This document shows, in pieces, positions 13,261 to 33,293 of a DNA stretch of 64,000 nucleotides (positions are counted from its first letter, which is position 1; each line of letters opens with the position of its first letter). The position numbers and the translations under genes were made by a program. The DNA lies in the NCBI GenBank assembly GCA_047947185.1, contig CP170502.1, forward strand, positions 1,301,978 through 1,365,977. The letters are read 5' to 3'. The notes beneath the pieces are model-generated. The model worked only from the letters and a program-made list of their open reading frames with translations, made no database searches and was not told the origin of the DNA. The stretch is from Pseudomonadota bacterium (GTDB lineage: Bacteria; Pseudomonadota; Gammaproteobacteria; Pseudomonadales; Azotimanducaceae).

Positions 13261-15486
13261 CTACCGATACCTCAGTTCATCCTGCAGGTCATGTGCCTGC
13301 CCGATGACATACGCCCTCAGTGCGGCAACATCGTCTTCTGCCAGCACATCACCAAACATCGGCATGCCCCGGTCTTGCAGGATGCCATCCAGCACAATTT
13401 CCCGGAATGCCATGTACTTGGCCGCGGGCATATGGCGCAGATCCGGGATTACCCCGCCGCCTTTCACACCGGCACCATGGCAAACCCCACAGTAGGTTGA
13501 ATACACCACGGCACCCTGGGCTATCTGTTCCGGCGTGCCTTCACGCGGGGGTGGCGGTGGTATGGGCGCATCCGGCGCGAGCGGCGGCAGGGTTGCCGTA
13601 CCCCCGAGCTTATAGGTCAGGATTTTGCCACGGCTTTTCTGGTTCAACATCTCGGCACCCCGGCCAAACGATAGCGCATAGGCACCACCCCAGCCTGCTA
13701 CCCAGGTGACATACTGTTCACCGTCAACCATATAGGTCACGGGTGGGGCAATCACCCCGGTTTGTGCTGGCGAGCGCCACAGCTCAACGCCATTGTCGGC
13801 CCGGTAGGCTTTTACTTCGCCAGCGGACGTCCCCTGGAATATCAGGTTGCCGGCGGTCGTCAGCATCCCGCCATTCCAGGCACCCGGGTGCTGGATTCGC
13901 CAGGCCTCCTCCTGCCTGACTGGATCCCAGGCTGAGACGTAACCGCGCATCATGCCGCCAAAGCGATCCTCAACGGTCTTGTCGACGAGTGGACCAGGGT
14001 CCCAGCTGATGGCCAGGTTCCACCGCCCTTCAACAAACTCGAAAGCCGGTTCGTGACCATAACCGTAGGGAATATCAAGCGCGGGTATGTAGACGAGCCC
14101 GGTTTCCGGATTAAACGCCATGGGATGCCAGTTATGCCCACCCAGGGGTGAAGGTTTGTGGAACGCGGCCTCAAGCTGTTCGTTACTCAATGACTTGAGC
14201 GCCTCTATCTGCTGATCAAGGGGCAGTGAGGACAGCGGATTGGGTGCCTGGTAGCGGGCGTTATCCGTTTCAACCGGCCGGCCGGACTCCGGGTCCACAT
14301 GGGTCGCCCAGGTAATCGGTATGTAGGGTTTGGCGGAAATAAACTCGCCATTGGTACGGTCAAGCACGTAGAAAAAACCGTTCTTGGGCGCCTGCAAAAT
14401 GACCTTGCGCGTCTCGCCGTTGATCTCGAGCTCAGCCAGGATCATGTGCTGGGTGGCGGTGTAGTCCCAGGTATCTCCCGGTGTGGTCTGGTAATGCCAG
14501 ATGTACTCGCCGGTATCAGGGTTGAGCGCAACAATAGATGACAGGTACAGATTGTCGCCGCCACCCGGGCTGCGCACCTGCTGGTTCCAGGGTGAGCCGT
14601 TACCCACGCCAATGTAAAGCTGGTTCAGCTCCGGGTCGTAGGCCATTGAGTCCCAGACAGTGCCACCACCACCCATGGTCCACCACTGCCCCGTCCAGGT
14701 TTTGGCTGCTGCTTCCATGGCGGGTGATACAAACGGCTCCGCCGGATTACCCGGTACCGTATAAAAGCGCCAGACCTGCTCGCCGGTGCTGGCGTCATAG
14801 GCGGTTACGTACCCGCGCACGCCATACTCGGCCCCACCATTGCCAATAATCACCTTGTCATTAACAACGCGTGGCGCGCCGGTAATGGTATAGGGTTTGG
14901 TGCGGTCAATGGTGTTGACATCCCACAGCACCTCACCGTTGGCCGCGTCCAGGGCCACCAGCCGTCCGTCCAGCGTGCCGACAAAAACCTTGCCCTTCCA
15001 GAGGGCCACCCCCCGGTTCACCACGTCACAGCAGGCATTCTTGCCCCATGACTTTGGGACCTGCGGATCATACTTCCAGATCAGTTCACCGGTTTTGGCA
15101 TTGTTGGCAAAAACCAGGCTCCAGGAACCGGTGCTGTACATCACCCCGTCAACCACAATGGGTGAAGCCTCGAGGCCGCGGTTGGTTTCCGTATCAAACC
15201 ACCAGGCCAGGCCAAGCTCACCCACATTGCTATCGTTGATCTGGTCCAGCGGACTGAATCTTGCTTCATCGTAGGTGCGGCCATGGGCCAACCAGTTGCC
15301 TGGTTCACTGTCGGCGTTGGTGATGCGCGCACCATCCACGCCGGCAGTAACTTCACGGATATGGTCCGCCATGGCGTTTGCTGTTTGTGGCAATTCAGCC
15401 GGAACCGGGACGCTATCTTCCTGCGTCAGCAGGAAAGCCAGCAGAATGACAAAAAGACCCGCTGCGAGCGCGATCAGGTTACGCAT
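13261..15486 (-). CDS. PQQ-dependent quinohemoprotein alcohol dehydrogenase (type II ADH)
   Basis: Signal/anchor peptide, a vicinal Cys pair (KNACCDVVNRG), W-rich propeller repeats and a C-terminal cytochrome c domain with CGVCHG. GGAGG RBS. Confidence 0.92.
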   Translation of the reverse strand: MRNLIALAAGLFVILLAFLLTQEDSVPVPAELPQTANAMADHIREVTAGVDGARITNADSEPGNWLAHGRTYDEARFSPLDQINDSNVGELGLAWWFDTETNRGLEASPIVVDGVMYSTGSWSLVFANNAKTGELIWKYDPQVPKSWGKNACCDVVNRGVALWKGKVFVGTLDGRLVALDAANGEVLWDVNTIDRTKPYTITGAPRVVNDKVIIGNGGAEYGVRGYVTAYDASTGEQVWRFYTVPGNPAEPFVSPAMEAAAKTWTGQWWTMGGGGTVWDSMAYDPELNQLYIGVGNGSPWNQQVRSPGGGDNLYLSSIVALNPDTGEYIWHYQTTPGDTWDYTATQHMILAELEINGETRKVILQAPKNGFFYVLDRTNGEFISAKPYIPITWATHVDPESGRPVETDNARYQAPNPLSSLPLDQQIEALKSLSNEQLEAAFHKPSPLGGHNWHPMAFNPETGLVYIPALDIPYGYGHEPAFEFVEGRWNLAISWDPGPLVDKTVEDRFGGMMRGYVSAWDPVRQEEAWRIQHPGAWNGGMLTTAGNLIFQGTSAGEVKAYRADNGVELWRSPAQTGVIAPPVTYMVDGEQYVTWVAGWGGAYALSFGRGAEMLNQKSRGKILTYKLGGTATLPPLAPDAPIPPPPPREGTPEQIAQGAVVYSTYCGVCHGAGVKGGGVIPDLRHMPAAKYMAFREIVLDGILQDRGMPMFGDVLAEDDVAALRAYVIGQAHDLQDELRYR

Positions 15487-15561: not shown

Positions 15562-18500
15562 TTACTGGGTACCTATACGCTGCATGAGGTTGCGGGCGTC
15601 GAACTGGTCAAACTTGACCCGATATTTGAGGTATACGCCTTTGGCTGTGTACTCGCTGGCACTGAAATCTTCATCATGGAATCCGGAGAAGTTATAGCCC
15701 AGCGACATCCAGACATTGTGTGCCATGTTGTAGCCAACCGAGACACCAAACGAGGTGTCCGAGGCGCCAGCCGCGTAAGAGTTATACATGCTTGTCTGTA
15801 CACCCAGGTCCCATTTGTTGTTCATATCGTGACGAATCTCCATCCCCAACAGGTCTGTAAACCCGCGATACTCATCGTCATCAAAGTTATCAACCACGTA
15901 CTTGGCGCCGTACTGGAACGCAATCTGGGTATTTTCCTGCCACAGATAGTTGGCATTCAGGTTGTTCACGATCTTCTGCGACACCACACTCGAATCAAGT
16001 GAACTGGACGTGTTACGCGACAGGTCCAGCCGGTTGAACAGGGTCCAGCGGCTGTCAATCGGCCGGAACGCATAACCCAGCCTTACGTCGGTAGTCGTCT
16101 GCGCAGAAAACTCGGTGTCATTTTTCTGGATGTTGATCTGGGCCAGCAACTGTGCCCCCTCATCCAGATCATGAATAACGTCACTTAGCAGGTTTACCTT
16201 GTCGCCGGTATCAGCCTTGCGATATTCGACCCGGGTGGACCAGTCCCAGGCGTTACGCTTGTAATTGGAGCCGAACGTCACCGCGGTAAAATCGTCATCC
16301 CCGGGGCTTGAGTAGACCGTGGTCACTTCCAGCTCAGGTGCAGCCCGCGTCTGCTTGATGGTCTGGGACCTGTCAACGCCAAAGTCGAAACTCCAGGCAT
16401 CGTTATACTCCCAGCGCTGCTTGAGACCGGCTACCGCCGCCAGCCGCTCGGAATTTTCCTGGTCAGCGCTTTGCTGTACCGAGGTGTTCAGTTCTGCACC
16501 GTCCCACAAGCGCGAACTCATGCCAATGCGGGTCCCCTGGGTATCCAGCTCTTCGCCCCAGGAGAACTCCTGTTCCGCGCTGAGGGTGACCGCGTCATTC
16601 AGCTTGTAATCCAGGCCAACACGCAGGCGCTTGGGGAAGTTGGCTGCTTCACCCTGTCCGCCTATCGGTGCATCGGCACTGGCTGTCAGGTTTGCCCTGC
16701 CATCCAGCACCTTGTAACTGCCACCCACCAGCACCTGGTTGGACACTGACTCCACACCATCTGCATCACTGACCGCGGATCTGAGCCCGGTATTGATGCT
16801 GTACTGGTCGTTGCGCATTTCCATGGTCGTCGACACCACGTCCTCGGTTGAACCTGTCCCAAGATTGGTCTGGCGATAGGCCTCACCACGGACTTCCACA
16901 CCGTCCCTGACCGTATAGGCGCCCTCAACACCCATCTTGCGGGTACCTGATTCACTGGCATTCTGCTGGCCAAGTCCAAACCCGCCGTCCTGCTCACGGA
17001 CGTAGGCCCGCGCATCCAGTTCCGCGTTGCGTCGCGAGATCTCGGCGAGATAAGCCGTACCGCTCGTTTCGCTACCGTCTTCCAGCTTGCTCCCGGTTGT
17101 CGCAATCTCTGCACGAAACTCGGTATCTGCGTCAATCTCAACAGCAACATCAACACCCAGCAGGCCGGTCTCCCGGTTTTCAACCCCTTCACGGATCGCC
17201 GTTGCGCCAACCTCAACCCGCTCGTTGGGCTTGTAGGCAACACGACCGCCCAGGTTCATTCGGTCCCGACCATCTCCTGCCGTTTCATAGTCTGCCACAA
17301 TAAATACCGGGTTAAATGCCGGGTCCTGGCTGTAAACCGGTTGTTTGAAGAAGATGGTGCCCGCGTCGTAATCAATGTTGTAATCAACGTAACGACGCAT
17401 ATCAACCGACTCGAGAATTCGCTCGGACCGGAAACGGTCGCGGGTTTCGAGCCTGATCTTTTCACTGTTGATCAGGATGCCGCCCGCTGACAACCGGTAT
17501 AAACCGGAGGTGCCATCACCCCGGATTTCGTCTTTTACAAACGCCTGGTTCGCCTCGCTCGCAAACGCAGAAAACTCGAACCTGTCACCCTCATATTCGG
17601 TCTTGAGGCCGGTGAAGTTCCTCGAGTAAGACGACAACTCATTGACGGTAAGCCCTGTCGTGAAGTCACCGAACAGGGCCGAAAACTGGTGTTTTTCCAG
17701 CTTCAGAAAGAGTTTTTCGTTGCTGGACGCATCGTACTGCAGGGTCGAGCGGTCGCCGTACAACGTGTAATAGGCGCTGGGGTCGATTGCCTGGGACAGG
17801 GCGTTTTTCTTTTCTTTGGCGGTATCGTAGGCAATCGTCAGGATGTACTCACCCTTGATTTGTCCCTTGGCATAAAACGCAACGCGCCCGTCTGCTGAGA
17901 ACTCATCATCCAGTCCGGCATCTGCAAGTCCTTCCATGTTCCCGGAGAGTTTCTGTTGGGCCAGTGAGCCTTCCGCGAGACCGACCATGATCCAGTCACG
18001 TTTTTCCGGCGCAACAAACAGCTCTATTTCCGTATCCTGCTCGTCACCATAGTAAAGGCTTGCATGATAAACACCGCTGCGGCTGACAGGGTTGAATTGC
18101 AACAGCCCGTCCGCGTCAACATCAATGTAGTTGCGATCCCTGATTTCCGCCAGCTCACTCAGGCTAAGCCCCCGGTCCAGCGCAACCAGGGAATCACTCT
18201 CAAAAACCAGTTTGTAAGGGCGCGATATTTTCTCACCGCTGCGGTCACGCAGATCAAGTTGCACCCTGACGGGTGTCCTGCCATCTGCAATATTGCCTTC
18301 GCTCTCAACCACCTCCAACCTGAACAGTTCACCTACACGCACGTAGGAAATCGTCTCGTCAAACCGTGCATTGCCAAAGCTGTCGACACCCTGAACGGTA
18401 ATCTGGTGTTCGCCCGGCTCACCCAGATCAACACCAATATAGCTGTACAGTGTTTTCCCGGTATCGCCGTCTTCCATGGTGAAACCGATTCGATCTTTCG

Positions 18501-21500
18501 GTACCTCGGTACCATCCACCAGCAGTTTTGGCTTCAGCCTGCTGTCAAGATCCAGTTTGATAGCCATGACCCGGGTGCTCACCCGCTCACCTTCGTTCAG
18601 GGTAATCAGGCCCTGCCGGTCAGGGTCACGACTGGCAACTGGTGTTTCACCACTGGCATCCAGCAGGTCCCAGCTACCGATTGCCTGGCTCCTGACTGAG
18701 GTTGATACCTTGACGTTCTGACCAGCCAGTTGCACAAGCGGCAAGCGATTGGGTGGCGTCTTTCCCTTCGGGGTTCCGACCGAGGTAAAACTCAGTCTTG
18801 CGGTACTGTCACCGGCGAGTACGCTGGCCGTGATAGTTCTGTCTTCCGGCAAATCGGGCGCAGCATTAAACAGCAGTTCAACCCGGCGGTTCTGCTGGCG
18901 CCCTGCCCGGGTCTCATTGGAGGCCACCGGATAGCGGTCGGCTGCACCTACCACGGCAATGGCAGGAAAGTCTCCCCGGCTGGCAAGGTAGTCAGCAACT
19001 GCCTGGGCACGCGCTTGTGATAGCGCCGCGTTGTCCGCAAATTCACCGCGATTCTCCGGCGCAATCCGCACGTTGTCAGTGTGCCCCACCACGGTCACTG
19101 CTTCCCAGCGTCGGTTACCCAGCTTTGCAATCAGTCTGTCGAGATCGGCGCGGTCTGCACTGGTGAGCGCCACGCTACGGGTTTCAAATCTCGGCTGCAG
19201 GGCAAGCAGCAGGTTATCGGGCGGCGGCTTCTTTTGACCCGGTTTGGGTTGAATGGCAAACCGGAGTTCTTTGCTGGTAACCACATCACCAATGTTCCAG
19301 ACGGTGCCAACAATGGACTGGCTATGGCTGATGGGGCTGCCGTCAAGTTCTTCGGTCCCCGCGATAACCGTCCAGCCCGCCGGCAGGCGGTAGATTACGC
19401 TGGCATCTTCTGCCACCACACGCCCTTCAGCAGACGCAGTGACCAGCACCCAGACCCGGTCGCCATCAACCGCCAGCGACTGTATCAACTCGATGTCAGA
19501 GACCGGCGGCGCCTTTTCCCTGACCCTGAAATCGGCACGCCACAGGGTACCACCCTGCAGGTCAACAAACTGCGAATGGGTCGCGCCCGCAAACCGGGCG
19601 TTGCTGTTACAGGGTGAGGGTTCATAACGCTCCTCCAGCGAGTCGATGTCCAGTTGGACAACATGACTGCCGGGTTCGATACCTTCCATGTGCCACATGC
19701 CCTCGTCATCTGTGATGACGTAAGAGCCGTCTTCCAGGAAAATCCGCACCCCGGGCATACCAGTCACCGGCGCCGGGTCACCCTGTCCTGCCTCATCAGC
19801 GCACTGTTCAAGTGTCACCCGGCCCGTGAGCATGGCTTTTCGACTGAACAGGTCATCCGTCACCACCACCCTCGCGGTTGCGGTGTTGCTCGAGACAATC
19901 AGGTCACCCATCACGCTCGCGGTATTGACTGCCGGCCCCAGGCCAGCGCCGGCCGTAATTTCGGCAACGTAGCGTACGTCAACAGGCTCAGTGCCAACCG
20001 GTGGCAGGTTAATGGTCAGCAGTGAACCATTGGCGTCAATCGAGGGATCCGGTGCCCGGGCGCCATCAATCCTGAGCGACCCTGACTGGAACCGAAACCC
20101 TTTGGGCAGCCTGTCGACGATGGCGCTGTCTCCCGCCGTGCCGCCGTTTTCGTTGTTTACGGTAATTCGATACTGGATAAAGTCTCCGATCGCTGCCACA
20201 TCGCGGCTGGCTTCTTTTTGCAGGAAAACGTTTGCGGACGGCTCGTCAATGGGCACATCAATGTTCAGCGCCGGTCCGACCGGTACTTCAAAAACGTCGC
20301 CACGCGAACCATCCACTACCTGGAAAGGTGCACCATTCAAACCCTGGATGACCAGGTCACTGACAACCGACGGGAACACCAGGTTGGCCGGCAGGTTGGT
20401 CACTTCCAGCCGGTAGTTGCCCGGCGCAACAAATGGAAACCGATATTCACCGTCGGGGAAGTCATACTGGAGCCCCGCGTCATCGGTAACGCTGCCGCCG
20501 GTCACCAGGGTGCTGGGAAAGGGGGCAAACAGCGGACCATCACCAAACACTGCCGCGGGCTCATTGGTATCGGCATTAACCAGCGTAATTGTTGCCCCGT
20601 TGATGAGTTCGCCGTTGCGGGTGCTGAACACCCGACCAAAAGGGTCCACCAGGACAAGGCTTTCGGAGCTGTCGGTGTTGTCAAACGCATCCGTGTAGGT
20701 GCTGGTGATCGGCTGGTTTTTCACAACCCCCAGCGTACAGCTGCCGGAAGATGATTCTTCTTCCGCCGATTGAATGTAGCCGATAAATTCACCGCTGTTT
20801 GGCTCAGTCTCGGTGAGTTCCAGGAATTCACGGTCGCCGCTGGCGGCAACATCCAGTTGGACGGTGATTGTCTCCCGGACATTGGCATCACGGTTCTGGT
20901 CCGCGTCTGTCACCTTGACAAAAACCGGCTGGCCTACCTTGATGACATCAGTCCTGATCAGGTTGACCACACCGGGTACTGGCACCAGGACGTTCCTGAG
21001 TTCCACTACCTCACGGGTCTGGCCTGCAACACAAACGGTTTGCTGGACGTTATAGGGTGTGCCCACGGCGGGATTGGGGCTGTACTGAAAAAATTCTGTT
21101 TTTGACGGCGAGGGACTGGCAGGCACTGCTGGCCCAATCCGCGTGACCGGGATATCAATCCTGGGCAGTGCCCCCTGGCTGACGCGAAACGGAAGTCCAC
21201 GTGACGCATCAGACAGTCGATAAGCACCGTCGGAAGTAACCGTGAGGGCACGCTCGAGGCTGGCGCCAAGCGACTGCAGCTCACTGTCTGGGCGCTGCGA
21301 AAACACATATCTCTGCGTGTTAAAGATCTCGAGCCGGTACTCCCCGTCAGGAATGGCTGGAAAACGGTATTCACCGGCATCCACGTCATAGACTGCGCCA
21401 GACCGATCCCGGGTATCTTCACCCGACTTTAGCGCTGACGGATAGAGTGAATAGACCGGACCGTCCCCGCGAACGTCCGCCGGCGTTGACGTGGCAACAC

Positions 21501-22785
21501 GCACCAGGGTGAGGATGACACCATTGACCGGTTCCCCGGTCGTGTCATCGAAGACGATACCTACAGGCGCAATATCGGCCAGCCTGGTGCTGATATCCTG
21601 CCCGTCAGTGGGATCTGTATAAGTTGCATTCACCTGGGACCGCGAGCGTACATTGAGGATACAGTCCTCGGGTACACTCACCTGGTTGGTGGTGATGACA
21701 TACCCCACAAAATAACCGCTATCCGGGCCTGACTCGAACAGACGCACCGTTTCGGTATCATTGGTCAGGCTCACATTCACGACCACATCAACCGATTCGA
21801 CCAGGAGGGGATTGTAGTTCTGGTCCATATCGCTGACACCAATATAGACTGGATCTCCAATGGCATAAGCATCAACAGGATCAACCGACAGATCGCCAAA
21901 TGGATTCGGACTACGAAAATCCAGGGAGCGTGACGCAATGGCAAGATCTCCGCCAAACTGACATACGGCAGGCTCAATCGCGTAAGTGTTGCCCGTTGCA
22001 TCAGGCGCCAACAATTCTATGTTCGATGGGGTCGGTACAACGGTCCGCACAGTTGTAATCACAGCCGACAACTCGGTCTTTAAACCACCCCTGTCGGTCG
22101 CAACAACTGTGACGGGAACCTCGGTATCAGGCGGCAGCAAGACGCCTTCCGCCAGGGACAACACGCCATCAACCACAACAAAGCGATCATCGCCGGCCAC
22201 AGTAAAAACGTGCTCATCACCCGCGTCAGGATCTGAAACGCTGAGTTCGCCAATCACCTGTCCGGGTGAATCGGGCGGTACATATCCACTGCTTAATGTC
22301 AGGTCAAACGGCGTCTCGTTGACGTCGAACACCTTAACATCGAAAGTCTCCTCGTAAACATTACCGCCGTCATCCGTGACACTGATTCTTACCGGGACTT
22401 CAGGCTCGGTCTCATAATCAAGGGAGACCCCGGCAACCAGCCGCAGTTGATCATCAACGACCTCAAAGCGTGCATCGCTGACTGACCAGACATGGCCGGT
22501 AACCTGATCGGGGTCAACCACAAGCACCGGACCGACAACAGCACCCGGCACATTCTCCAGGACGAAGGCCACTTCACAGCCAGCATCGTCGGCACAGTCA
22601 AGGTCAATGTCGGTCGGGGCGTCATCACCGTCGGTGAACTCAAGCGTAAAACTGACCCTGGCCTCGATGCCCTCTGGCGCACCGGCGAACGTAAGGCGGG
22701 CAAGGTTGGTGTAGATATCACCGTTCTGTTGCGCGTCTGCTGGCGTCGCAGAAAAGAAAAGGGCCATGGCAACTACCGTTACCAT
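15562..22785 (-). CDS. Giant (~2400 aa) envelope protein with adhesin-like repeats, an internal OmpA-like domain and a large C-terminal predicted beta-barrel
   Basis: Domain order, N to C:
- Signal-like N-terminus MVTVVAMALFFSATPADA.
- Two cadherin-like repeats (DVNETP).
- A duplicated ~300-aa beta-sandwich module (GEYRFP...YRLE).
- DUF11-type repeat (IGDFIQYRITVNN...NTASV).
- OmpA_C-like domain (VTVVGHTDNVRIA...LSQARAQAVADYL...NRRVELL, about nt 18860-19200).
- Ig-like domain.
- About 800 C-terminal aa of amphipathic beta-strands (about nt 15565-18000).
The start could instead be the ATG at 22893. Confidence 0.85.
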   Translation of the reverse strand: MVTVVAMALFFSATPADAQQNGDIYTNLARLTFAGAPEGIEARVSFTLEFTDGDDAPTDIDLDCADDAGCEVAFVLENVPGAVVGPVLVVDPDQVTGHVWSVSDARFEVVDDQLRLVAGVSLDYETEPEVPVRISVTDDGGNVYEETFDVKVFDVNETPFDLTLSSGYVPPDSPGQVIGELSVSDPDAGDEHVFTVAGDDRFVVVDGVLSLAEGVLLPPDTEVPVTVVATDRGGLKTELSAVITTVRTVVPTPSNIELLAPDATGNTYAIEPAVCQFGGDLAIASRSLDFRSPNPFGDLSVDPVDAYAIGDPVYIGVSDMDQNYNPLLVESVDVVVNVSLTNDTETVRLFESGPDSGYFVGYVITTNQVSVPEDCILNVRSRSQVNATYTDPTDGQDISTRLADIAPVGIVFDDTTGEPVNGVILTLVRVATSTPADVRGDGPVYSLYPSALKSGEDTRDRSGAVYDVDAGEYRFPAIPDGEYRLEIFNTQRYVFSQRPDSELQSLGASLERALTVTSDGAYRLSDASRGLPFRVSQGALPRIDIPVTRIGPAVPASPSPSKTEFFQYSPNPAVGTPYNVQQTVCVAGQTREVVELRNVLVPVPGVVNLIRTDVIKVGQPVFVKVTDADQNRDANVRETITVQLDVAASGDREFLELTETEPNSGEFIGYIQSAEEESSSGSCTLGVVKNQPITSTYTDAFDNTDSSESLVLVDPFGRVFSTRNGELINGATITLVNADTNEPAAVFGDGPLFAPFPSTLVTGGSVTDDAGLQYDFPDGEYRFPFVAPGNYRLEVTNLPANLVFPSVVSDLVIQGLNGAPFQVVDGSRGDVFEVPVGPALNIDVPIDEPSANVFLQKEASRDVAAIGDFIQYRITVNNENGGTAGDSAIVDRLPKGFRFQSGSLRIDGARAPDPSIDANGSLLTINLPPVGTEPVDVRYVAEITAGAGLGPAVNTASVMGDLIVSSNTATARVVVTDDLFSRKAMLTGRVTLEQCADEAGQGDPAPVTGMPGVRIFLEDGSYVITDDEGMWHMEGIEPGSHVVQLDIDSLEERYEPSPCNSNARFAGATHSQFVDLQGGTLWRADFRVREKAPPVSDIELIQSLAVDGDRVWVLVTASAEGRVVAEDASVIYRLPAGWTVIAGTEELDGSPISHSQSIVGTVWNIGDVVTSKELRFAIQPKPGQKKPPPDNLLLALQPRFETRSVALTSADRADLDRLIAKLGNRRWEAVTVVGHTDNVRIAPENRGEFADNAALSQARAQAVADYLASRGDFPAIAVVGAADRYPVASNETRAGRQQNRRVELLFNAAPDLPEDRTITASVLAGDSTARLSFTSVGTPKGKTPPNRLPLVQLAGQNVKVSTSVRSQAIGSWDLLDASGETPVASRDPDRQGLITLNEGERVSTRVMAIKLDLDSRLKPKLLVDGTEVPKDRIGFTMEDGDTGKTLYSYIGVDLGEPGEHQITVQGVDSFGNARFDETISYVRVGELFRLEVVESEGNIADGRTPVRVQLDLRDRSGEKISRPYKLVFESDSLVALDRGLSLSELAEIRDRNYIDVDADGLLQFNPVSRSGVYHASLYYGDEQDTEIELFVAPEKRDWIMVGLAEGSLAQQKLSGNMEGLADAGLDDEFSADGRVAFYAKGQIKGEYILTIAYDTAKEKKNALSQAIDPSAYYTLYGDRSTLQYDASSNEKLFLKLEKHQFSALFGDFTTGLTVNELSSYSRNFTGLKTEYEGDRFEFSAFASEANQAFVKDEIRGDGTSGLYRLSAGGILINSEKIRLETRDRFRSERILESVDMRRYVDYNIDYDAGTIFFKQPVYSQDPAFNPVFIVADYETAGDGRDRMNLGGRVAYKPNERVEVGATAIREGVENRETGLLGVDVAVEIDADTEFRAEIATTGSKLEDGSETSGTAYLAEISRRNAELDARAYVREQDGGFGLGQQNASESGTRKMGVEGAYTVRDGVEVRGEAYRQTNLGTGSTEDVVSTTMEMRNDQYSINTGLRSAVSDADGVESVSNQVLVGGSYKVLDGRANLTASADAPIGGQGEAANFPKRLRVGLDYKLNDAVTLSAEQEFSWGEELDTQGTRIGMSSRLWDGAELNTSVQQSADQENSERLAAVAGLKQRWEYNDAWSFDFGVDRSQTIKQTRAAPELEVTTVYSSPGDDDFTAVTFGSNYKRNAWDWSTRVEYRKADTGDKVNLLSDVIHDLDEGAQLLAQINIQKNDTEFSAQTTTDVRLGYAFRPIDSRWTLFNRLDLSRNTSSSLDSSVVSQKIVNNLNANYLWQENTQIAFQYGAKYVVDNFDDDEYRGFTDLLGMEIRHDMNNKWDLGVQTSMYNSYAAGASDTSFGVSVGYNMAHNVWMSLGYNFSGFHDEDFSASEYTAKGVYLKYRVKFDQFDARNLMQRIGTQ

Positions 22786-22910
22786 GACCCTTACACGTTT
22801 TATGCATCGAACGAGAATATCAGCACATCCTGCCAAAGTGGCATCGGCGCGGCTTACACCGTTTCTCCTGTACTGATTTCCCGTGATCCACATCCAATCA
22901 TCATCAGGCT

Positions 22911-24092
22911 CTAGTCAACCTGTATACGGTAGACGACACGCGCAACGCCGTTGAGGCTGCCAGTGTCTTCCCCACCTGTCAGTGACCCGCTGGTGCCTAC
23001 AAGCAGACCACCATCGTCAGCATCACTTGCCAGCGGGAAATCGTTCGGGTCCGCGGTAACCGTGTCATCACTGACCGCCAGTGTGTTCAGCAGTGTCGTG
23101 CCTGACACATAAGACGTGTACTGCGGCAGTGTGTCGGACAGCACCGCACCCGTTATTGCCGTGCCTGTCGGGTTGTCCATGACAATCAGGTACTCCAGCA
23201 CACCGCCTGGTTCAGCAGTCACCCCACCATCAAAATAGTTGTTGGCGCCGCTGCCCGAATCATAACTGACCGCACCGGTACCACCGCTCTCATCACAGAG
23301 GCTGATACAACGGACCAGCTTGGTCATGATGATCTCGACAATATCGATGTCCACATCGTCGGTAAACGTCGTGGCCCCGTTATTCAGCGACGTGGTCACT
23401 GTAATGTCTGCAGCAGGCGTTGCCGATACTGTCTTCGCACCTACATCCGCCACGCTCATCGTAAAGGTTTCCGATTCGAATATGCCTTCGCCAACCGGGA
23501 GGCCGCCTGGAATATTGGCCGTAAACGTAATTGTCGAAGTACCGGAGGCGTTGTCGACAACACTCAACACCGTGTATTCAATGTTGTTGATCACCACCGT
23601 ATCAGTAGGTGCGAGACCGTTCACCTCGCCGTCACTGGTGCCATCTGAAGGCACAGTCACGGTGGGACTACCACCCGGTGAAATCGCCGCCAGCGCCGTT
23701 GCACCCAGCTCAATACTGCCAACCGAGGGTGTGATGACATAGCCACCGCCCGGTGCCGTGACGTTGTTGGAACCTGTCACTGCACCACTGATCGTGTAGG
23801 TGTCGACACCGTTGTTCTGTGCATACACCTTGTAACTGATCAGGGCTGACGCGTTCTCAGGCTTGGATTGATCCGGTGGCACCGAAAAGGCCGGGTTGAT
23901 CCTGACGTCAGCCTTGACGAGGCTCACCGTGACGGTGACCTCTGCCGTAATGCCGGTTGGATTACCCGAGTACACCAGTTTTGCCTGGTTGATCAGCGCC
24001 GTGTTGGCCGGTGTTAATGCCAGCGCCGCCGGTGCGCCGAACATCAGGCCAAGCGCCACCAGAACCACTGCATGAAGTTTAAAAGATTTCAT
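22911..24092 (-). CDS. Secreted two-domain DUF11-type repeat protein
   Basis: Signal peptide MKSFKLHAVVLVALGLMFGAPAALA and an AGAGGA RBS. The Thr/Val/Gly-rich beta-sandwich sequence ends ...ARVVYRIQVD, like its paralog at 24120. A Cys pair is present (VRCISLC). Confidence 0.8.
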   Translation of the reverse strand: MKSFKLHAVVLVALGLMFGAPAALALTPANTALINQAKLVYSGNPTGITAEVTVTVSLVKADVRINPAFSVPPDQSKPENASALISYKVYAQNNGVDTYTISGAVTGSNNVTAPGGGYVITPSVGSIELGATALAAISPGGSPTVTVPSDGTSDGEVNGLAPTDTVVINNIEYTVLSVVDNASGTSTITFTANIPGGLPVGEGIFESETFTMSVADVGAKTVSATPAADITVTTSLNNGATTFTDDVDIDIVEIIMTKLVRCISLCDESGGTGAVSYDSGSGANNYFDGGVTAEPGGVLEYLIVMDNPTGTAITGAVLSDTLPQYTSYVSGTTLLNTLAVSDDTVTADPNDFPLASDADDGGLLVGTSGSLTGGEDTGSLNGVARVVYRIQVD

Positions 24093-24119: not shown

Positions 24120-24867
24120 CTAGTCAATTTGTACAAGGTAACGAACAACCGACACGTTGCCCGCGTCGATAGTCCCGCCAATAGCACCCACCTCATTGGC
24201 ACCCGCACCGGCGAAGACGGTAATTTCATCCGGATCCGGCGTGGTATTCACACCGCCGAAATCCCCGCCCGTGGCCAGCGTATCGTCGACGTTAGCCGCC
24301 GAAAGACTGCCTGTTACCGTACAGGTGCCCGTCGCTGCCGCACTACAGGCACCCGCGCCGTCCGCTGCTGTCGTATTGGGCAGCACCTGGATGGTGGTTG
24401 CCTGGTAGGTCGTGAAATTGACAAAGGGGTCTGTCACAACCACGTTCTGGACGTCGCCACCGTCGTTGTACAGAAGGATGATGTATTCAAGGTCTTCGCC
24501 CGGCTGAGCACTCACACCATCTGCATAGTAGGTTGTACCGCCAACCACAACACAGGAGAAAGCTGCGGCGCCACATGAAGCAGGGTTGCTCGCAAAGGTG
24601 TCAAGGTTCCTGACAAACTTGTAGATCTGCAGATTGGCGGCCAGCACGGTAATCAGCGGAGTCATAGGCAATGGCGGGGATTGCCGGCAGCAGGTTAACC
24701 GTCACAATGACAGAATCAGTGGCTGTCAGGCCCGTTGCTGTCAGGCTGTCGTAAGTGACAGTTACCGTGTTGCGCAGTTGCGCCTGGGACGCGGTCCCGG
24801 CGGCAAGCGCCTGGCCGGCAAATGCTGCCACCAACAGACCCAGACCAATTCTTACTATACTTCTCAT
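24120..24867 (-). pseudogene. Secreted DUF11-type protein with interrupted reading frame (+1 shift needed between 24701 and 24604)
   Basis: Frame A (ATG 24867, signal peptide MRSIVRIGLGLLVAAFAGQALA) stops at 24601. Frame B (open from 24701 to 24120) encodes a domain paralogous to the C-terminus of the 393-aa neighbour but has no signal peptide. A G4/C4 run lies at 24676-24679. This could be a real frameshift, a sequencing error, recoding, or two separate genes. Confidence 0.5.
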
Positions 24868-24953
24868 GTTGAGCGCCTCTAACCTTAACTTCGTGTGAAA
24901 CCGCCACACCCAAATGTAACGACTGTAAAACTCATTTCAAAAATCGTGCCAGA

Positions 24954-25454
24954 TTACTGAACCAGCACCACAAAACTGACCTCACCGGTTTCGCCGGGCG
25001 GAATTTCCTCAATCAACCAGCGAATATTGGTGAATCTTTCCGGCGATGCCTTACGTCGGTCTGTGCCGCCGCCAAAGACGGTCACCTCGTAGGTCACCTC
25101 CTCTGGCGGGCTGTACGTCTGGCCGCCGTCTGCTGAAAAGACAATGGTAGAGCCCGTTCCCGATGCGGAATCCGACAGGTAAACCGTCAGGTCCGGAATA
25201 GGATTCTCAATCCTCACCTCGGTTGCAGGCTCGTCACCCATGTTGACGTAGCGCACTGTATAGCGGAGCTTCTGACCGGGTTCGATCTCCTCGGCTTCGA
25301 CCCAGCGCGTCACTTCCTGACCATTTTCTTCAACGACCACTTCTTTCAACACGTTCATGTCGAGTTGAATATTGGGATCGGCCATGGCCACAGAGGGCGT
25401 CAGCACGGCCATCAATATCAATTCCATCAACATCAGTCTTTTCCTGTTCTTCAT
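24954..25454 (-). CDS. Small secreted single-domain DUF11-type protein
   Basis: Signal peptide MKNRKRLMLMELILMAVLTPSVAMA from the ATG at 25454. DUF11-like core (GQKLRYTVRYVNMGDEPATEVRIENPIP...GETGEVSFVVLVQ). Confidence 0.8.
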   Translation of the reverse strand: MKNRKRLMLMELILMAVLTPSVAMADPNIQLDMNVLKEVVVEENGQEVTRWVEAEEIEPGQKLRYTVRYVNMGDEPATEVRIENPIPDLTVYLSDSASGTGSTIVFSADGGQTYSPPEEVTYEVTVFGGGTDRRKASPERFTNIRWLIEEIPPGETGEVSFVVLVQ

Positions 25455-25708
25455 CGAGTCCAGGATTCCTTGCGAATATCGAGCCAAGATCTTCATTGTT
25501 CTACCATCGTGTCAGAAACTTGTTGTTGAGCTTTAGACGCACTCTTGCGCATGGTATTCAATCAAACCACACGCCACAAGCGAAAATTTCAATGAAAATA
25601 GCGGGTTAACGCCAATTTCAAAGAAACCGTATGAAGTCTTGCTGCCAGGATTCCTCAACCCTTCCCTATTGGATGAATCACATTATAGGAGGGCCAAACT
25701 GTTTAAAC

Positions 25709-26172: not shown

Positions 26173-26883
26173 ATGCCTGAGTTTATTGCCAACCTGCTGA
26201 TAGTCGAAGATGAACCCATCACGCGGTCACAGTTGGCGGCACACTTTCGGCGCGAAGGCTACGGCATCACCGAACTGGAAACCGCAGACGGCGTTCAGCA
26301 GGCAATCGACAGCAGCAATATTGATATCTGCCTCATCGACATCAACCTGCCTGGTAAAGACGGCCTGACGCTTACCCGGGAGCTGAGAAACGGCTCAGAC
26401 GTGGGCATCATCCTGGTCACTGGCAAAGACGAACAGATTGACCGCATACTGGGCCTCGAGAGCGGCGCTGACGACTACGTCACAAAACCCTTTGATCCCC
26501 GGGAACTGCTCTCTCGCGTCAAGAACCTGCTCTGGCGCATTCGTGCCCAGGAGAAACAGAAGGAGAAAGGCTTCAAGCGAAAGTTTGCTGACTGGACCCT
26601 CGACCTTAACAAACGCGAACTGTTGACACCTGATGGTGAAATCCAGCCCCTTTCTGCCGGCGAGTTCCACCTGCTGCTTGCCCTGATCGAAAACGCTGGC
26701 CAGGTCATGACCCGTGATCAACTGATGAACCGGATCCGCAACCGCGAATGGTATCCCGATGATCGCTATATTGACGTGCTGGTGGGCCAGGTCCGGCGAA
26801 AGTTCCGCGAACACGCACCCGACACGACCTTCATCAGTACAATACACGGTACCGGCTACCTGTTTGCGCCTGATGTGACCTGA
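26173..26883 (+). CDS. OmpR/PhoB-family response regulator, ArcA-like
   Basis: REC domain (LLIVEDE, phospho-acceptor context CLIDINLPGKDG, GADDYVTKPF) plus a winged-helix C-terminus (ISTIHGTGYLF). It aligns well with E. coli ArcA by eye. Confidence 0.9.
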   Translation: MPEFIANLLIVEDEPITRSQLAAHFRREGYGITELETADGVQQAIDSSNIDICLIDINLPGKDGLTLTRELRNGSDVGIILVTGKDEQIDRILGLESGADDYVTKPFDPRELLSRVKNLLWRIRAQEKQKEKGFKRKFADWTLDLNKRELLTPDGEIQPLSAGEFHLLLALIENAGQVMTRDQLMNRIRNREWYPDDRYIDVLVGQVRRKFREHAPDTTFISTIHGTGYLFAPDVT

Positions 26884-26921
26884 GGGTATAAGATTATCGC
26901 GTTACCCACAGGGACGCTGGC

Positions 26922-29900
26922 ATGATTTCGGTCGTCGGCTATACCAATCTGCAACTCATCTACCAGGGACCCGAAACCCTGGTCTACCGCGCCACCAGAC
27001 GGATTGACAAGCGCCCCGTGGTACTGAGGCAGCTGCGCGCCGACAGGTTTTCTCCGTCGCTTGCGGCACAGTACCAGAGGGAGTACGCGCTGCTCCGCAC
27101 CATCGAGTCGGCCAGGGTCATTGCTGCCCTTGATCTTGTTGAGGCCGACGGAACCGTCACCCTGGTGACCGAAGACGTTGGCGGTACTTCGCTGGCAGAG
27201 TTGCCGCATCTGCCGCTCAACGATGTCATTGCCCTTGCTATCGCTATCGTCGACGGCTTGGATGACCTGCACGCCCAATACATCGTGCACAAGGACATTT
27301 GCCCAGGAAACCTGATCCTGAATCCTGCAACCGGCCAGCTCAAGATCATCGACCTTGGCATCGCATCGCAAACCCGCGCATCTTCCCGACGACCGGAGCC
27401 GGGCCTCGGACCGGAAGGTACATTGCCTTACATGGCCCCGGAGCAGACCGGTCGACTGAACCGCTCGGTGGACTATCGCGCGGACTTTTACGCTCTCGGT
27501 GCCACCCTCTACGAGCTGTTAACCGGAAACCCGCCCTTTCGGGCCGACAGCGTGCTCGAAATGATCTACAGCCATGTCGCCCTCATGCCAACGGCACCGG
27601 CGGAGGTCAGCCCTGCCGTGCCAGCCAGTCTCTCAAACATCGTGATGAAACTGCTGGCGAAAATGCCCGAGGAGAGATACCAGAGCACTTTTGCGCTCAG
27701 GGCTGACCTCAACCGCTGCCTTGAACTGGTGTCCGGTGGTACCGACGCGGGCTTCCAGATTGCACTGGATGACATACCCGAACAGATGCTGCTCACCCAG
27801 AAATTGCTGGAACGTGAGGCGCAACTCCAGCAAATCAAGGATGGTCTTGCCGCGGCAGCCGCAGGTACCACGGAGATTGTCGTCTGCCATGGCAAGGCCG
27901 GTACGGGTAAGTCTGCCCTGATCCGTGAATTCCAGAAGGAGGTACTGACAGGTGGCGGCCTGTTTGTTAGCGCCCGTCACAACCCGGCCAGCCCCGAACG
28001 CCCCTATGGTGCCGTGTCGGTGGCATGCCGCGACCTGGTCAGGCAACTGCAGGCGCGGGTTGACAATGAATCCATCCGCGTTCGCCTGGCCCAGGCGCTC
28101 GGTGAGAATGTTGGTGTGATCACACAGCTGGTACCGGAACTGGCGCCGCTTTTCCCGGACCGGGGCCAGGATCTGAATCTGCCACCGATTGAGGCGAGGA
28201 GTCGCCTGTTGTGGAGTCTCACAACCCTGATTCAAACCCTGTCCAGCGAGGAACATCCCTTTGTGCTGGTGATCGAGAGCCTGCACTGGATCGACAAGGC
28301 GTCACTTGAGTTGTTCGAACCCCTGATTATTGCGCAGCGGATTCCGGGACTTATGGTGTTGTGTGCCTACCGGCCAGAGGAACTCAACCTGAACAGTGAT
28401 ACCCGGCAGGTCATTGAGCGCATCATGACCTCCGGTGCACCCATCAGGCTGGTCCGCCTGACCAATCTGTCCGCGCAGGCAATTGCCGTTCTGCTTTCGG
28501 AGTCCTTCTTCCGACCTGTTGAGGATACGCTAACGCTGGCACGTCTGATTCATGACAAGACAGGTGGTAACCCCCTGGCCGTCCACGCGTTCATCTCAAA
28601 CCTTGGCGAAGTGGGCGCCCTGCGTTTTGACAGACGCCATCGCGAGTGGACCTGGGACCTCACCACAGCTTCTGCCACGCCGCCTACCGAAAATGTTGGC
28701 GAACAGCTCTCTGCAAGCATAGGCAAACTGGAGCCAGCCACGGCCCAACTGCTGAAAATTGCGTCATGTGCCGGTGAAGACTTTGATCTCGAAATGCTGC
28801 GAGAAGTATCCGGCCTTTCGTTTCCCGAGACCGCGGCGCGCCTGCTGAACGCCGTCAGGGAAGGCTTTATCATCTACCGACCTGTTGACGCCACCCACCC
28901 CGGCCGTCAGGCGGGCCCGCTCAGCTACCGGTTTGCCCATGAACGCATCCAGCAGGCTGCCTACGCCCTGCTGGATAACGAGGAGAAGCGGCAGATCCAC
29001 GGCAAGATCGGCGAGGTATTGCTGCGCGCCGCTGAGGCAGATGAAACCAGCAGGATTTTCGATGTTGTCAATCATCTCAACAATGGCATCACCCGACCGG
29101 ATCGGAAGGCTTCCGAAGATACCCGACTTGCCTCACTCAACATCGCTGCCGGCAACAAGGCAAAAGCCGCGGGTGCCTTCCAGGCTGCCTTCAAATACTA
29201 TCGCACGGCGATAGCCCTGCAAGGACCCCGTCTCTGGGACAGGTACGATGAGTCCCTGGAACTGCATCTGGACACGGCAGAAGCAGCCTATCTGTGCGGA
29301 GACCAGAACCAGGTGGAACTCACGATCAACAGTGTGCTCACCCATGCACGCAGTCCGCTGGATCGTGCCCGGGCACTTGAAATCCGTCTCCGCGCGCTGA
29401 TTGCATTTGAGGACATCGAGTCGGCCCTCAGCCTGGGTGACGAGGTACTGGAGCTCCTGAACGTCCGTGTTCCACGGATGGGCGGCCCCGGTTTCATCAG
29501 GATGCTCGGGAGCCTGATCTACCAGGTTATCCGCGTGAGCCAGAGCAGTACCTTGCCAACACGCAAGATGACCGACCCAGGGCTCCTGGCCGCCATGCGG
29601 ATTCTCATGGTCATGTGCCAGGCAAGCTACCTGAACGGTAGCCCGCAGACTGGCATGTACATACTCAGGATGACCCAGCTATCCGTGCGGCACGGCCTGG
29701 CACCGGAGTCGTCTTTTGCCTACCCGATGTTCGGTGCCCTGATCATCACCTATCTCGGCACAATCAGCGCGGGCTACCGCTTTGGCATGCTGGCGATGCA
29801 AAACCTGGATGAACACAACAAGGAGCTTCACTGCAAGAGCCTGACGCTGGTGAACAATTTCATTTCAATCTGGAAACAACCGGTTCGAAACACCTTGGAA

Positions 29901-32900: not shown

Positions 32901-33293
32901 CCTGTTGAGCCGATGCCGGCAGCCCAGATTGTCATTCGTGGTGTGGATTTTGGCAGGGCACTGCGCAACCATGGGGGCGACCGTGAGTTGCTTTCATCCC
33001 TGATGACGGAGTTTGTCAAAATCTACCGGTTTTCGGATGAAGACCTGCGGGCGCTGCTGGCCTCAGCGGACCCTGTCCGGGCGGAACGCCTGGCGCACAA
33101 TGTTGCGGGGGTCGCCGGGAGTTTTGGCGCCATGGCTCTGATGAATGCAGCCCGGGCGCTTGAGCATGAAATCCGTGATGGTGCTCTGCACCTGGATGAC
33201 CAGCTTGAAGCTTTTGGTCGTGAACTGATCAACTTCCTGCGCGCCATAGAGCAGTTCCAACTGGCGGAACCCACCTCAGTCGCCGACGCCTAG
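26922..33293 (+). CDS. 2123-aa multidomain sensor: Ser/Thr-kinase-like domain, P-loop NTPase, helical/TPR-like region, GAF, PAS, HisKA/HATPase_c, REC, Hpt
   Basis: - Kinase motifs HKDICPGN, IDLGIAS and PYMAPEQ.
- Walker A GKAGTGKS (27891-27914).
- GAF (...LCIPILSKSHLTGVLYLEN).
- PAS (LYQNAVEGIFELD).
- H-box SHEIRTPMN (His at 31815-31817).
- N/G boxes (NLVGNALKFT, DTGIGI, GTGLGL).
- REC Asp in VLMDLRMP (32679-32681).
- Hpt His in LAHNVAGVAGSFG (33096-33098). Confidence 0.9.
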   Translation: MISVVGYTNLQLIYQGPETLVYRATRRIDKRPVVLRQLRADRFSPSLAAQYQREYALLRTIESARVIAALDLVEADGTVTLVTEDVGGTSLAELPHLPLNDVIALAIAIVDGLDDLHAQYIVHKDICPGNLILNPATGQLKIIDLGIASQTRASSRRPEPGLGPEGTLPYMAPEQTGRLNRSVDYRADFYALGATLYELLTGNPPFRADSVLEMIYSHVALMPTAPAEVSPAVPASLSNIVMKLLAKMPEERYQSTFALRADLNRCLELVSGGTDAGFQIALDDIPEQMLLTQKLLEREAQLQQIKDGLAAAAAGTTEIVVCHGKAGTGKSALIREFQKEVLTGGGLFVSARHNPASPERPYGAVSVACRDLVRQLQARVDNESIRVRLAQALGENVGVITQLVPELAPLFPDRGQDLNLPPIEARSRLLWSLTTLIQTLSSEEHPFVLVIESLHWIDKASLELFEPLIIAQRIPGLMVLCAYRPEELNLNSDTRQVIERIMTSGAPIRLVRLTNLSAQAIAVLLSESFFRPVEDTLTLARLIHDKTGGNPLAVHAFISNLGEVGALRFDRRHREWTWDLTTASATPPTENVGEQLSASIGKLEPATAQLLKIASCAGEDFDLEMLREVSGLSFPETAARLLNAVREGFIIYRPVDATHPGRQAGPLSYRFAHERIQQAAYALLDNEEKRQIHGKIGEVLLRAAEADETSRIFDVVNHLNNGITRPDRKASEDTRLASLNIAAGNKAKAAGAFQAAFKYYRTAIALQGPRLWDRYDESLELHLDTAEAAYLCGDQNQVELTINSVLTHARSPLDRARALEIRLRALIAFEDIESALSLGDEVLELLNVRVPRMGGPGFIRMLGSLIYQVIRVSQSSTLPTRKMTDPGLLAAMRILMVMCQASYLNGSPQTGMYILRMTQLSVRHGLAPESSFAYPMFGALIITYLGTISAGYRFGMLAMQNLDEHNKELHCKSLTLVNNFISIWKQPVRNTLEPLSRAYQTGMETGDVEFALIAAIMGTVNAFLLGHDLNSLDASLARYNRQAADLNQTPILGIGSIYQQAIRNLSQPAGQPWLLVGDIYVEEDLIPFHEANGDESSLANLYIVKLFLAVLFRRDREAMDYARLARPKLSSVVSSPALAFFMLYESLAMLSSLKSVTPITALRLNLRISYNQRLFRKWAHHAPANILHGYHLVEAERHRIAGRNTAALEAFDLAISAASENGYLKEQALANELAGRFHLGSGKRELALFYLRRARAAYTRWGAISKVRALDTEFVELSEDDLYTGRGRLLSAAGTSIKIQGQRDMRGYGEFLDLGSVIKASQVLAGEIVLDNLLERLMQVALENAGAQKAALVLSRDNRLNLEMTTDYQDQKPIHVRQEIPIEQASDIPVSVVQYVARTREDLVLNDAMNEDIFTQDAYIVSRKPKSILCIPILSKSHLTGVLYLENMQTTLAFTKDRVAILRLLASQSAIAIENARLYQQLNDSRNKYLSLYQNAVEGIFELDGRGMVTNINPAAAHLMGYDSAEQALRHGSFDPTKRVVNPEDAEHVRALLNQEQRVIGYELLIRRNDESTIWVALSAQVFTGDNDDDFRVEGSIIDITERKLREEAEQATRLARAATETKSQFLANMSHEIRTPMNAIVGYTNLALKTPLSEQQASYLETIRNSSNHLLRVVNDILDLSRVESGKLELQHTPFRLRDIVTDLHNLFDLEAQQKGIRLLVPDIADAEEDFFVGDPVRIGQILINLVGNALKFTDTGEVRVEFETVHLKDERACLNFTVADTGIGIDASQLNTIFDSFVQGNAPSREEGTGLGLAICKSLVEMMEGHIHAVSTPGEGSQFYFSVIVGVDRDQRVKSAAPAATAGSLEGQTLLLVEDNAINRNLALEVLSQAGLSVVVAENGAEALAALETQAFFAVLMDLRMPVMNGIEAIRQIRAIPAFATLPTIALSASVLKSEVDEAISAGFDHYLSKPVDFAELLDLLRAIGNVAPAPPVEPMPAAQIVIRGVDFGRALRNHGGDRELLSSLMTEFVKIYRFSDEDLRALLASADPVRAERLAHNVAGVAGSFGAMALMNAARALEHEIRDGALHLDDQLEAFGRELINFLRAIEQFQLAEPTSVADA

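Follow-up and report, generated by a model that had tools for sequence, protein, structure and literature searches.

A giant barrel protein with a mid-chain peptidoglycan-binding domain as a possible wall-anchored base of surface fibres in an Azotimanducaceae bacterium

The 64,000-nucleotide stretch of contig CP170502.1 considered here (positions 1,301,978–1,365,977 of assembly GCA_047947185.1, hereafter the window) comes from a bacterium of the Azotimanducaceae, and encodes on its reverse strand a mega-protein in which a long array of cadherin-like, transthyretin/CnaB-like and CLIPPER (DUF11) domains is followed by an OmpA_C-like domain and a very large C-terminal barrel. An initial annotation had seen in this order a topological paradox, with modules normally displayed on cell surfaces lying N-terminal to a periplasmic-type domain. 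The architecture is as it described, its coordinates for the individual parts are correct, and the arrangement is indeed unusual, yet it is best described not as a paradox but as a variation on barrel-mediated fibre display that belongs to a widespread family. In the reading favoured here, to which we would give about an even chance, the mega-protein serves a short surface fibre as base, cell-wall anchor and outer-membrane conduit at once, its distal array threading the lumen of its own barrel. The context missed by the initial annotation is a set of three upstream subunit genes and the very large family to which the mega-protein belongs.

Wall anchor and giant barrel

The OmpA_C-like domain is strongly supported as a canonical periplasmic peptidoglycan binder on the strength of its sequence matches. 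Placed by the initial annotation at about 18860–19200, it matches Pfam PF00691 at residues 1236–1336 with 52.8 bits against a cut-off of 27.2 (window positions of about 18871–19188), and is also matched by the NCBIfam TssL, YiaD and PA1041 anchor models with E-values of 1e-19 to 1e-22. It aligns with the structures of TssL, ArfA, YiaD and AbOmpA (OmpA of Acinetobacter baumannii), and its VVGHTDN...LSQARA...NRRVEL pattern follows those of TssL and ArfA column for column, the Asp of GHTD, the Arg of LSQARA and the NRRVE motif all being kept. The former two presumably contact diaminopimelate, as in the A. baumannii OmpA–peptidoglycan complex. The peptidoglycan-binding residues, whose absence had been named as one way out of the topological puzzle, are thus present.

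The C-terminal ~570 residues are strongly supported by structure prediction as an outer-membrane barrel of at least 32 strands. Two AlphaFold2 runs, one covering residues 1341–2443 with an alignment of 46 homologues (predicted local distance difference test, pLDDT, 73.6) and the other residues 1634–2443 with 61 homologues (pLDDT 76.1, predicted template modelling score 0.64), both produced 32 long strands within residues 1862–2426, mostly at a pLDDT of 80–95. This bears out the description of a region far larger than a 12-strand autotransporter barrel, and places a barrel where a soluble C-terminal region had been held up as the outcome that would remove the puzzle. Hydrophobic and polar faces alternate along the strands across the family profile, and the last strand, GVYLKYRVKF, has a beta-signal-like pattern. 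In the models nearly all barrel loops are 2–6 residues long, and each of the four loops with nine or more residues comes after an odd-numbered strand, the pattern that a first strand entering from the periplasm and a C-terminus ending on the same side would produce. Pfam provides weak generic matches to OMP_b-brl and OmpA_membrane at residues 2354–2429. All full-length matches in both Foldseek searches, with the exception of ApoB100, were outer-membrane barrels (probability up to 1.00), including Deinococcus SlpA (30 strands), LptD, MtrB, FimD/PapC, SprA and TonB-dependent receptors, at TM-scores not exceeding 0.3; the first search also returned short matches to proteins with immunoglobulin (Ig) domains, arising from the two Ig-like domains in the query. 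A sequence search of the PDB with the C-terminal ~1,100 residues (1341–2443) gave no match at E<=1, and the barrel, as modelled, belongs to a size class without a close solved relative. By standard barrel geometry 32 strands would enclose a backbone diameter estimated at 55–60 Å, wide enough for Ig domains. A reduced-alphabet mean-field direct coupling analysis of 259 copies of the conserved C-terminal module of the family, or C-module (Neff 220), seeking the partner of the last strand, was dominated by gap and terminus artefacts.

The end of the chain had been considered odd for lacking an aromatic residue and for running 17 residues beyond ...YLKYRVKF. The tail (DQFDARNLMQRIGTQ) is in fact 15 residues long and a subfamily feature (consensus KFDQ...W), while a distant paralogue without it ends its barrel exactly on ...LTGAF. 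Since the tail follows a normal terminal strand, and internal beta-signals are common (OmpA itself and ushers being examples), the non-aromatic C-terminus is not anomalous.

Conservation within the family peaks immediately before the barrel (69% identity among orthologues), in a stretch still recognisable at 30–37% identity in distant paralogues and other giant proteins of related genomes, including one 5,752-residue open frame. AlphaFold2 renders this pre-barrel region as 12 short strands (residues 1672–1853), and it is possible that these form a plug, a gate or the first strands of the wall. Two of its stretches (residues 1634–1672 and 1692–1727) have a pLDDT below 50 despite their high conservation, a combination of conserved sequence and low model confidence that suggests a contact surface for a partner.

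Relatives and the periplasmic part of the chain

The OmpA domain is a movable module, detectable in 102 of the 121 homologues examined. Thirteen of the 121 (P0068- and P0089-type among them) have two OmpA domains ~300 residues apart, flanking a CarboxypepD_reg-like and Ig-like pair of which the former matches its counterpart in the window protein with an E-value of 3e-32. If both OmpA domains are wall-bound, this pair is periplasmic, and by homology residues 1013–1225 of the mega-protein would be as well. A distant relative from Photobacterium phosphoreum (30% identity over the CLIPPER and CarboxypepD_reg region, and 22% over 1,031 residues for the whole C-module) is a giant protein lacking an OmpA domain, and the next gene encodes a 182-residue protein that combines a lipobox (LLSGC) with an OmpA domain. 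In a related genome a distant paralogue (L014 12–7725) is found in two pieces, an array protein (transthyretin module, CLIPPER and CarboxypepD_reg) and a 1,712-residue barrel protein with its own signal peptide, followed by three OmpA domains, the pre-barrel region and the barrel. Their reading frames overlap by 17 nucleotides, and the good signal peptide argues that the split is probably real rather than a frameshift artefact. The C-terminus of this array protein looks like a degenerate OmpA domain undetected by Pfam. Another distant paralogue (L015 1744–5555; 2,296 residues) contains DUF11, DUF7933, OmpA and the C-module, and adjoins genes for HlyD-like membrane-fusion proteins, one with a GAF domain and one with a Peptidase_M50-like region.

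Taken together, the two-OmpA homologues, the separate OmpA lipoprotein and the split paralogue show, as far as predicted domain order goes, that OmpA and barrel constitute a self-contained unit linking outer membrane to wall, that array and OmpA meet within the periplasm, and that Ig-like domain type is uninformative on compartment in this family. By chain connectivity, a periplasmic location is strongly supported for the predicted domains from residue ~1013 to the first barrel strand (CarboxypepD_reg, Ig, OmpA, linker and two Ig), and the two Ig domains between OmpA and barrel must be periplasmic. The premise of the paradox, that such domains are of a surface type, therefore fails within the family, as seen in the CarboxypepD_reg and Ig pair enclosed by two OmpA domains and in the Ig pair leading from OmpA to the barrel. 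The latter (residues 1431–1633) resembles intimin D00–D0 in the Foldseek results (ranks 9, 13 and 15).

The remaining modules were largely as first described, with DUF11 and CarboxypepD_reg matches above threshold, and SdrD_B and Cadherin matches below it. For the cadherin-like region the Pfam Cadherin match (residues 110–187) reaches 18.3 bits, and phmmer matches the region to protocadherin structures (E 5e-7). In each tandem module the first domain, of beta type, is marked by a D.DQN...(L)xExxxxSGxFxGYI motif and by two conserved Cys residues ~100 positions apart; it is conserved family-wide and has no Pfam match. In the accompanying domains Pfam identifies SdrD_B slightly under threshold (residues 505–538, 26.1 bits) and CarboxypepD_reg (residues 753–832, 38.8 bits). 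The CLIPPER domain (PF01345, residues 891–1008) scores 38.2 bits, or 40.2 bits when scanned alone, over profile positions 4–113 of 114, and a candidate Lys-Asp-Asn isopeptide triad was picked by eye (K in LQKEAS, D in GDFIQY and N in NTA). The CarboxypepD_reg-like domain beginning at ~1013 has a conserved Cys pair and 64% identity among orthologues. At the very N-terminus, a hairpin (residues 55–86) resembles the last two strands of the CLIPPER domain, Asn included (...AVNTASVMG...SNTATARVVV in the domain at 891–1008), and is kept as G..I.N.A...V.VT.V in the family consensus, and might donate its strand pair to the preceding subunit.

A single unbroken open reading frame encodes all of this, and the one-chain layout recurs in more than 100 independent records, ruling out misassembly or gene fusion as an artefactual origin of the architecture. 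The database gene call for the identical protein starts at M37 (window position 22785, 2407 residues), the ATG of which is immediately preceded by an AAGGG Shine–Dalgarno-like motif; a TTG start upstream of M37 would give the signal peptide an extra basic n-region.

Upstream subunits and the path of the array

The three proteins encoded upstream each have a signal peptide and a C-terminus that falls one strand-pair short of a full CLIPPER domain, ending on ...ARVVYRIQVD, ...VSVVRYLVQID and ...GEVSFVVLVQ, compared with ...VDVRYVAEIT followed by AGAGLGPAVNTASVMG...SNTATARVVV in the complete domain. Subunits B and C and the mega-protein all carry, immediately behind the signal peptide, a hairpin (N.A.L.Y.G.P.GI.A.V.V) resembling the missing strands, again including the Asn, while the candidate tip subunit is devoid of such a donor hairpin. 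A chimera of the tip domain with the hairpin of subunit B increased its Pfam DUF11 score from 32.1 to 39.8 bits (a gain of 7.7, with no scrambled-hairpin control) and its profile coverage from 4–58 to 4–99. Both a sister species and a distant genome have the operon's genes as well. Subunit B amounts here to ~250 codons in total, its sister-species orthologue is intact at 441 residues, and the window's copy thus seems to have lost ~190 codons as well as its frame.

In the threading model, the distal ~960 residues (hairpin, cadherin-like domains, two modules, and probably CLIPPER) would cross their own lumen in a folded state and reach the surface, the crossing domains being stabilised by disulfides and possibly by isopeptides. 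The chain would then lead from the outside through the lumen to a periplasmic loop (CarboxypepD_reg, Ig, OmpA on peptidoglycan, linker, Ig and Ig) and into the barrel wall, the disordered 85-residue linker past OmpA allowing it to come back from wall to membrane. Its N-terminal hairpin would complete the cut-short C-terminal CLIPPER domain of subunit C, with further subunits joined on as far as the tip, which has an acceptor domain and no hairpin; Lys-Asn isopeptides might lock the joints, and OmpA would pass the load on the fibre to the cell wall. Several considerations favour this model. A lumen occupant is needed because the barrel is wide and its short loops cannot fold in to close the pore, and a mere anchor would not need 32 strands. 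Because their Cys pairs are ~100 residues apart, the distal modules could cross only when folded, a passage possible through the giant lumen but not through a narrow type V pore. The subunits have the tip-to-base polarity of chaperone–usher pili, and since those are surface organelles this favours a surface fibre. Threading is also favoured by a rise in conservation from the distal end to the machinery, as identity among orthologues climbs from 28–47% to 62–69% (hairpin 28%, cadherin-like 42%, CarboxypepD_reg 64%, pre-barrel 69%, barrel 62%). A chain crossing the outer membrane twice, one of the two possibilities originally raised, is thus better restated as one passage of folded domains through their own lumen of at least 32 strands, similar to an autotransporter with a periplasmic insert, and in this form is judged the more likely arrangement for the distal ~960 residues.

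Each of the known systems shares some of these properties. Chaperone–usher pili (FimD/PapC with Fim/Pap subunits) also combine an outer-membrane barrel with Ig-like periplasmic domains, pass folded subunits through the usher barrel, and consist of incomplete Ig-like subunits completed by a strand of the next subunit with a tip lacking a donor, a feature proposed here from sequence. Ushers, however, have 24 strands rather than at least 32 (Foldseek TM-scores to FimD/PapC do not exceed 0.3), while here the donor would be a two-strand hairpin of a CLIPPER end with a possible isopeptide lock, and base subunit, wall anchor and barrel are one polypeptide; no Pfam Usher or PapD match was found in the mega-protein or its neighbours, placing it outside the chaperone–usher class. 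Classical (type Va) autotransporters are likewise single chains that display an N-terminal array and end in a barrel, with passage through their own lumen, as proposed here. They differ in having a 12-strand barrel, a helical linker and an unfolded passenger, as opposed to at least 32 strands and long-range Cys pairs or disulfides, and in lacking the ~620 periplasmic residues (CarboxypepD_reg, Ig, OmpA, linker and two Ig) found here between array and barrel, and the mega-protein, with no Pfam Autotransporter match at E<=0.1, does not belong among them. Inverse (type Ve) autotransporters such as intimin and invasin also bring together a barrel, an Ig-like (Big) array and a domain that binds peptidoglycan in the periplasm, but in reversed domain order, with LysM in place of OmpA_C and a 12-strand barrel, and the absence of a Pfam IAT_beta match in the mega-protein separates it from that type as well. 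Tethers of the Deinococcus SlpA/OmpM type likewise place a wall-binding domain N-terminal to a very large C-terminal barrel, and SlpA is the best Foldseek match, albeit at a low TMq of 0.29. These tethers use a surface-layer homology (SLH) domain and a coiled-coil trimer rather than OmpA_C and have neither Ig array nor subunit operon, and with no Pfam SLH match the mega-protein is not one of them. MtrAB, LptDE and the type IX secretion translocon SprA, all among the Foldseek matches, are large barrels (26–36 strands) whose lumen is occupied by, or passes, a folded protein, but they bear no sequence relationship to the mega-protein, and their occupant is a separate protein (cytochrome, lipoprotein or cargo) rather than their own N-terminal part. 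The CLIPPER domain itself is shared with fibrillar adhesins and with chlamydial OmcB. A survey of such domains describes CLIPPER as forming the stalks of surface adhesins and as containing an intramolecular Lys-Asp-Asn isopeptide, and reports intramolecular bonds and anchors of the Por_secre_tail, CHU_C and LPXTG types (PMC12617251); in the portions of that survey consulted, neither an anchor made of OmpA plus a giant barrel nor cut-short terminal CLIPPER domains are described.

A number of observations weigh against a threaded array. Its position (residues 55–1012) is deduced indirectly from modelled and predicted parts, and we know of no system that threads a passenger yet leaves a folded peptidoglycan-binding domain between passenger and barrel. 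The operon shows no evident energy source or chaperone for exporting a folded array of ~960 residues, its subunit B gene is broken here, the other two hairpin chimeras gained ~2 bits each, which is within noise, and the gradient of conservation appears only modest. Nor does domain type favour the surface, since there are periplasmic precedents for CarboxypepD_reg, which is periplasmic in SusC-type transporters, and arguably for DUF11, the chlamydial DUF11 protein OmcB having been argued to be periplasmic. In a wholly periplasmic scaffold, the other possibility originally raised, the entire array and any attached subunits would act as a strut or spacer associated with the wall and suspended by the barrel from the outer membrane, with the lumen closed by the pre-barrel region. 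Such a scaffold is the most credible of the alternatives, although we consider it unlikely. It accords with the OmpA domain being mid-chain, with at least four Ig-like domains of "surface type" that are periplasmic by connectivity and with the lack of an evident export chaperone or energy source in the operon, the highly conserved pre-barrel region of 12 short strands could plug the lumen, and the best structural match, SlpA, is a wall-tethered giant barrel. On the other hand, 32 strands are more than a simple anchor needs, the distal domains, cadherin-like modules among them, are the least conserved, and an array of ~12 domains (>40 nm) is long for a periplasm of ~25 nm. Moreover, the order already has OprF, Pal and Lpp-type tethers, so that an extra tether between outer membrane and wall is not expected, and to our knowledge there is no periplasmic polymer of secreted subunits with tip-to-base polarity.

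Less probable still is an usher-like conduit combined with a periplasmic tether, in which only the small subunits are extruded, the hairpin of the mega-protein caps the last subunit and keeps it in or at the mouth of the barrel, and the ~1000-residue array, staying in the periplasm, links the barrel to wall-bound OmpA as a flexible tether or a platform for assembly. The polarity typical of chaperone–usher pili (a tip without a donor and a base without an acceptor), the Ig-like periplasmic domains before the barrel, reminiscent of the N- and C-terminal domains of ushers, the presence of FimD and PapC among the Foldseek matches, and the separation of array and barrel proteins in the split paralogue all fit this picture. 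It would nonetheless yield a very short exported part, since there are only three subunit genes, one of them broken, and would require the array to fold back over >40 nm inside the periplasm; there is also no PapD-like chaperone gene, and structural similarity to ushers is as low as noted above. The topological problem would vanish altogether if the OmpA-like domain were not a wall binder here but exported with the array to meet another ligand. This is very improbable given the retention of the canonical Asp, Arg and NRRVE residues, best matches (TssL, MotB, Pal, YiaD and ArfA) that are all periplasmic or wall-facing, the relative in which the domain is a lipobox lipoprotein, and the paralogous barrel protein with three copies directly after its signal peptide. 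Returning to the threaded array, a bolder version of this reading, that it represents a new route of outer-membrane display and assembly on a level with type V secretion or the chaperone–usher pathway, is put forward only tentatively, as somewhat less probable than the threading itself. In it one protein would be translocon, covalent base and wall anchor, and the subunits would be joined through split CLIPPER domains, with a possible spontaneous Lys-Asn isopeptide and no need for chaperone, sortase or ATP.

Table 1. Parts of the mega-protein and upstream subunit genes, with window positions and the basis of each assignment
Feature	Residues	Window positions	Strand	Basis or remarks
Mega-protein, whole open reading frame	1–2443	15562..22893	-	2443 residues from first ATG; database start M37 (22785)
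Signal peptide, MVTVVAMALFFSATPADA followed by QQ	37–54	22732..22785	-	predicted from sequence
N-terminal hairpin (...IYTNLARLTFAGAPEGIEARVSFTLEF)	55–86	22636..22731	-	comparison with CLIPPER 891–1008
Cadherin-like domains	87–290	22024..22635	-	Pfam sub-threshold and phmmer
Two tandem ~300-residue modules	291–885	20239..22023	-	each a beta domain plus a transthyretin/CnaB-like (SdrD_B/CarboxypepD_reg) domain
Complete CLIPPER (DUF11) domain	886–1012	19858..20238	-	Pfam PF01345
CarboxypepD_reg-like and Ig-like domains	1013–1225	19219..19857	-	family-conserved, nearly invariant columns
OmpA_C-like peptidoglycan-binding domain (GHTD...LSQARA...NRRVE)	1226–1345	18859..19218	-	Pfam, NCBIfam and PDB matches
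Pro/Lys/Thr-rich linker, low-confidence/disordered	1346–1430	18604..18858	-	pLDDT 31–65
Two Ig-like domains, periplasmic	1431–1633	17995..18603	-	pLDDT 85–93
Pre-barrel region (YYTLYGD, KLYLKLE, DYNIDYDAGTIFF)	1634–1860	17314..17994	-	conservation and AlphaFold2
Outer-membrane barrel, 32 long amphipathic beta-strands	1861–2428	15610..17313	-	AlphaFold2, family profile and Foldseek
C-terminal tail of 15 residues (low-pLDDT helix) and stop codon		15562..15609	-	sequence and AlphaFold2
Subunit C, 393 residues, signal peptide and N-terminal hairpin LINQAKLVYSGNPTGITAEVTVTV		22911..24092	-	C-terminal CLIPPER-like domain ends ...ARVVYRIQVD
Subunit B, broken gene		24120..24909	-	signal peptide and hairpin 24601–24909; C-terminal CLIPPER-like domain in other frame 24120–24671
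Candidate tip subunit, 180 residues, signal peptide and one cut-short CLIPPER domain		24954..25496	-	Pfam DUF11 profile 4–58 only

Family, neighbouring genes and implications

The C-module (~1,020–1,100 residues) is always C-terminal, in proteins of ~1,500–3,000 residues that carry CLIPPER and transthyretin-like domains, shorter records being fragments. A representative search returned 3,358 protein clusters (at 50% identity) at E<=1e-3 and 1,376 at E<=1e-30. Named sources include uncultured Pseudomonadales, Candidatus Azotimanducaceae, Geobacter, Geomonas, Geomobilimonas, Desulfurivibrionaceae, Syntrophaceae, Kaarinaea, Myxococcota and Thermodesulfobacteriota, and the module also occurs in Geobacterales and Vibrionaceae. 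Matches were found in 14 of the 41 genomes searched, counting the window's own, which has one copy. Database names for family records are limited to "OmpA family protein" or "TIGR01451 repeat protein", Pfam has no model for the C-module, and literature searches found no published description of the architecture or family; the archaeal tafi (PMC11821415) are unrelated to it. Hits of ~1,000–1,200 residues were considered as stand-alone barrel proteins or separate ushers and rejected, all six examined being fragment-like and without a signal peptide, and the only credible split form of the family is the distant paralogue L014. The short homologues P0105, P0060, P0066 and P0089 are N-terminally truncated records, and as such do not define a minimal N-terminal length.

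Adjoining the operon is a divergent pair encoding an OmpR-type response regulator and a 2,123-residue hybrid kinase (window 26173–33293, forward strand) with Ser/Thr kinase, AAA, GAF, PAS, HisKA, HATPase, REC and Hpt domains. As the pair flanks the operon in the sister species as well (L016 4583–7000), it suggests dedicated regulation of the cluster. Directly downstream of the mega-protein gene and on the same strand (window 13261–15486) lies a pyrroloquinoline quinone (PQQ)-dependent dehydrogenase with a C-terminal cytochrome c domain, which was not found beside the homologous operons examined and is probably unrelated to the operon.

There is a fair chance that this display system constitutes a pathway in its own right. 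If the array does thread its own barrel, two-membrane bacteria would have a new way of displaying long, folded and robust fibres coupled to the cell wall. In practical terms, surface display could profit from a barrel of at least 32 strands through which folded domains pass, and a natural split isopeptide domain would amount to a tag/catcher pair. Even if wholly periplasmic, a polymer of Ig domains hung between outer membrane and wall would represent a novel type of envelope structure.

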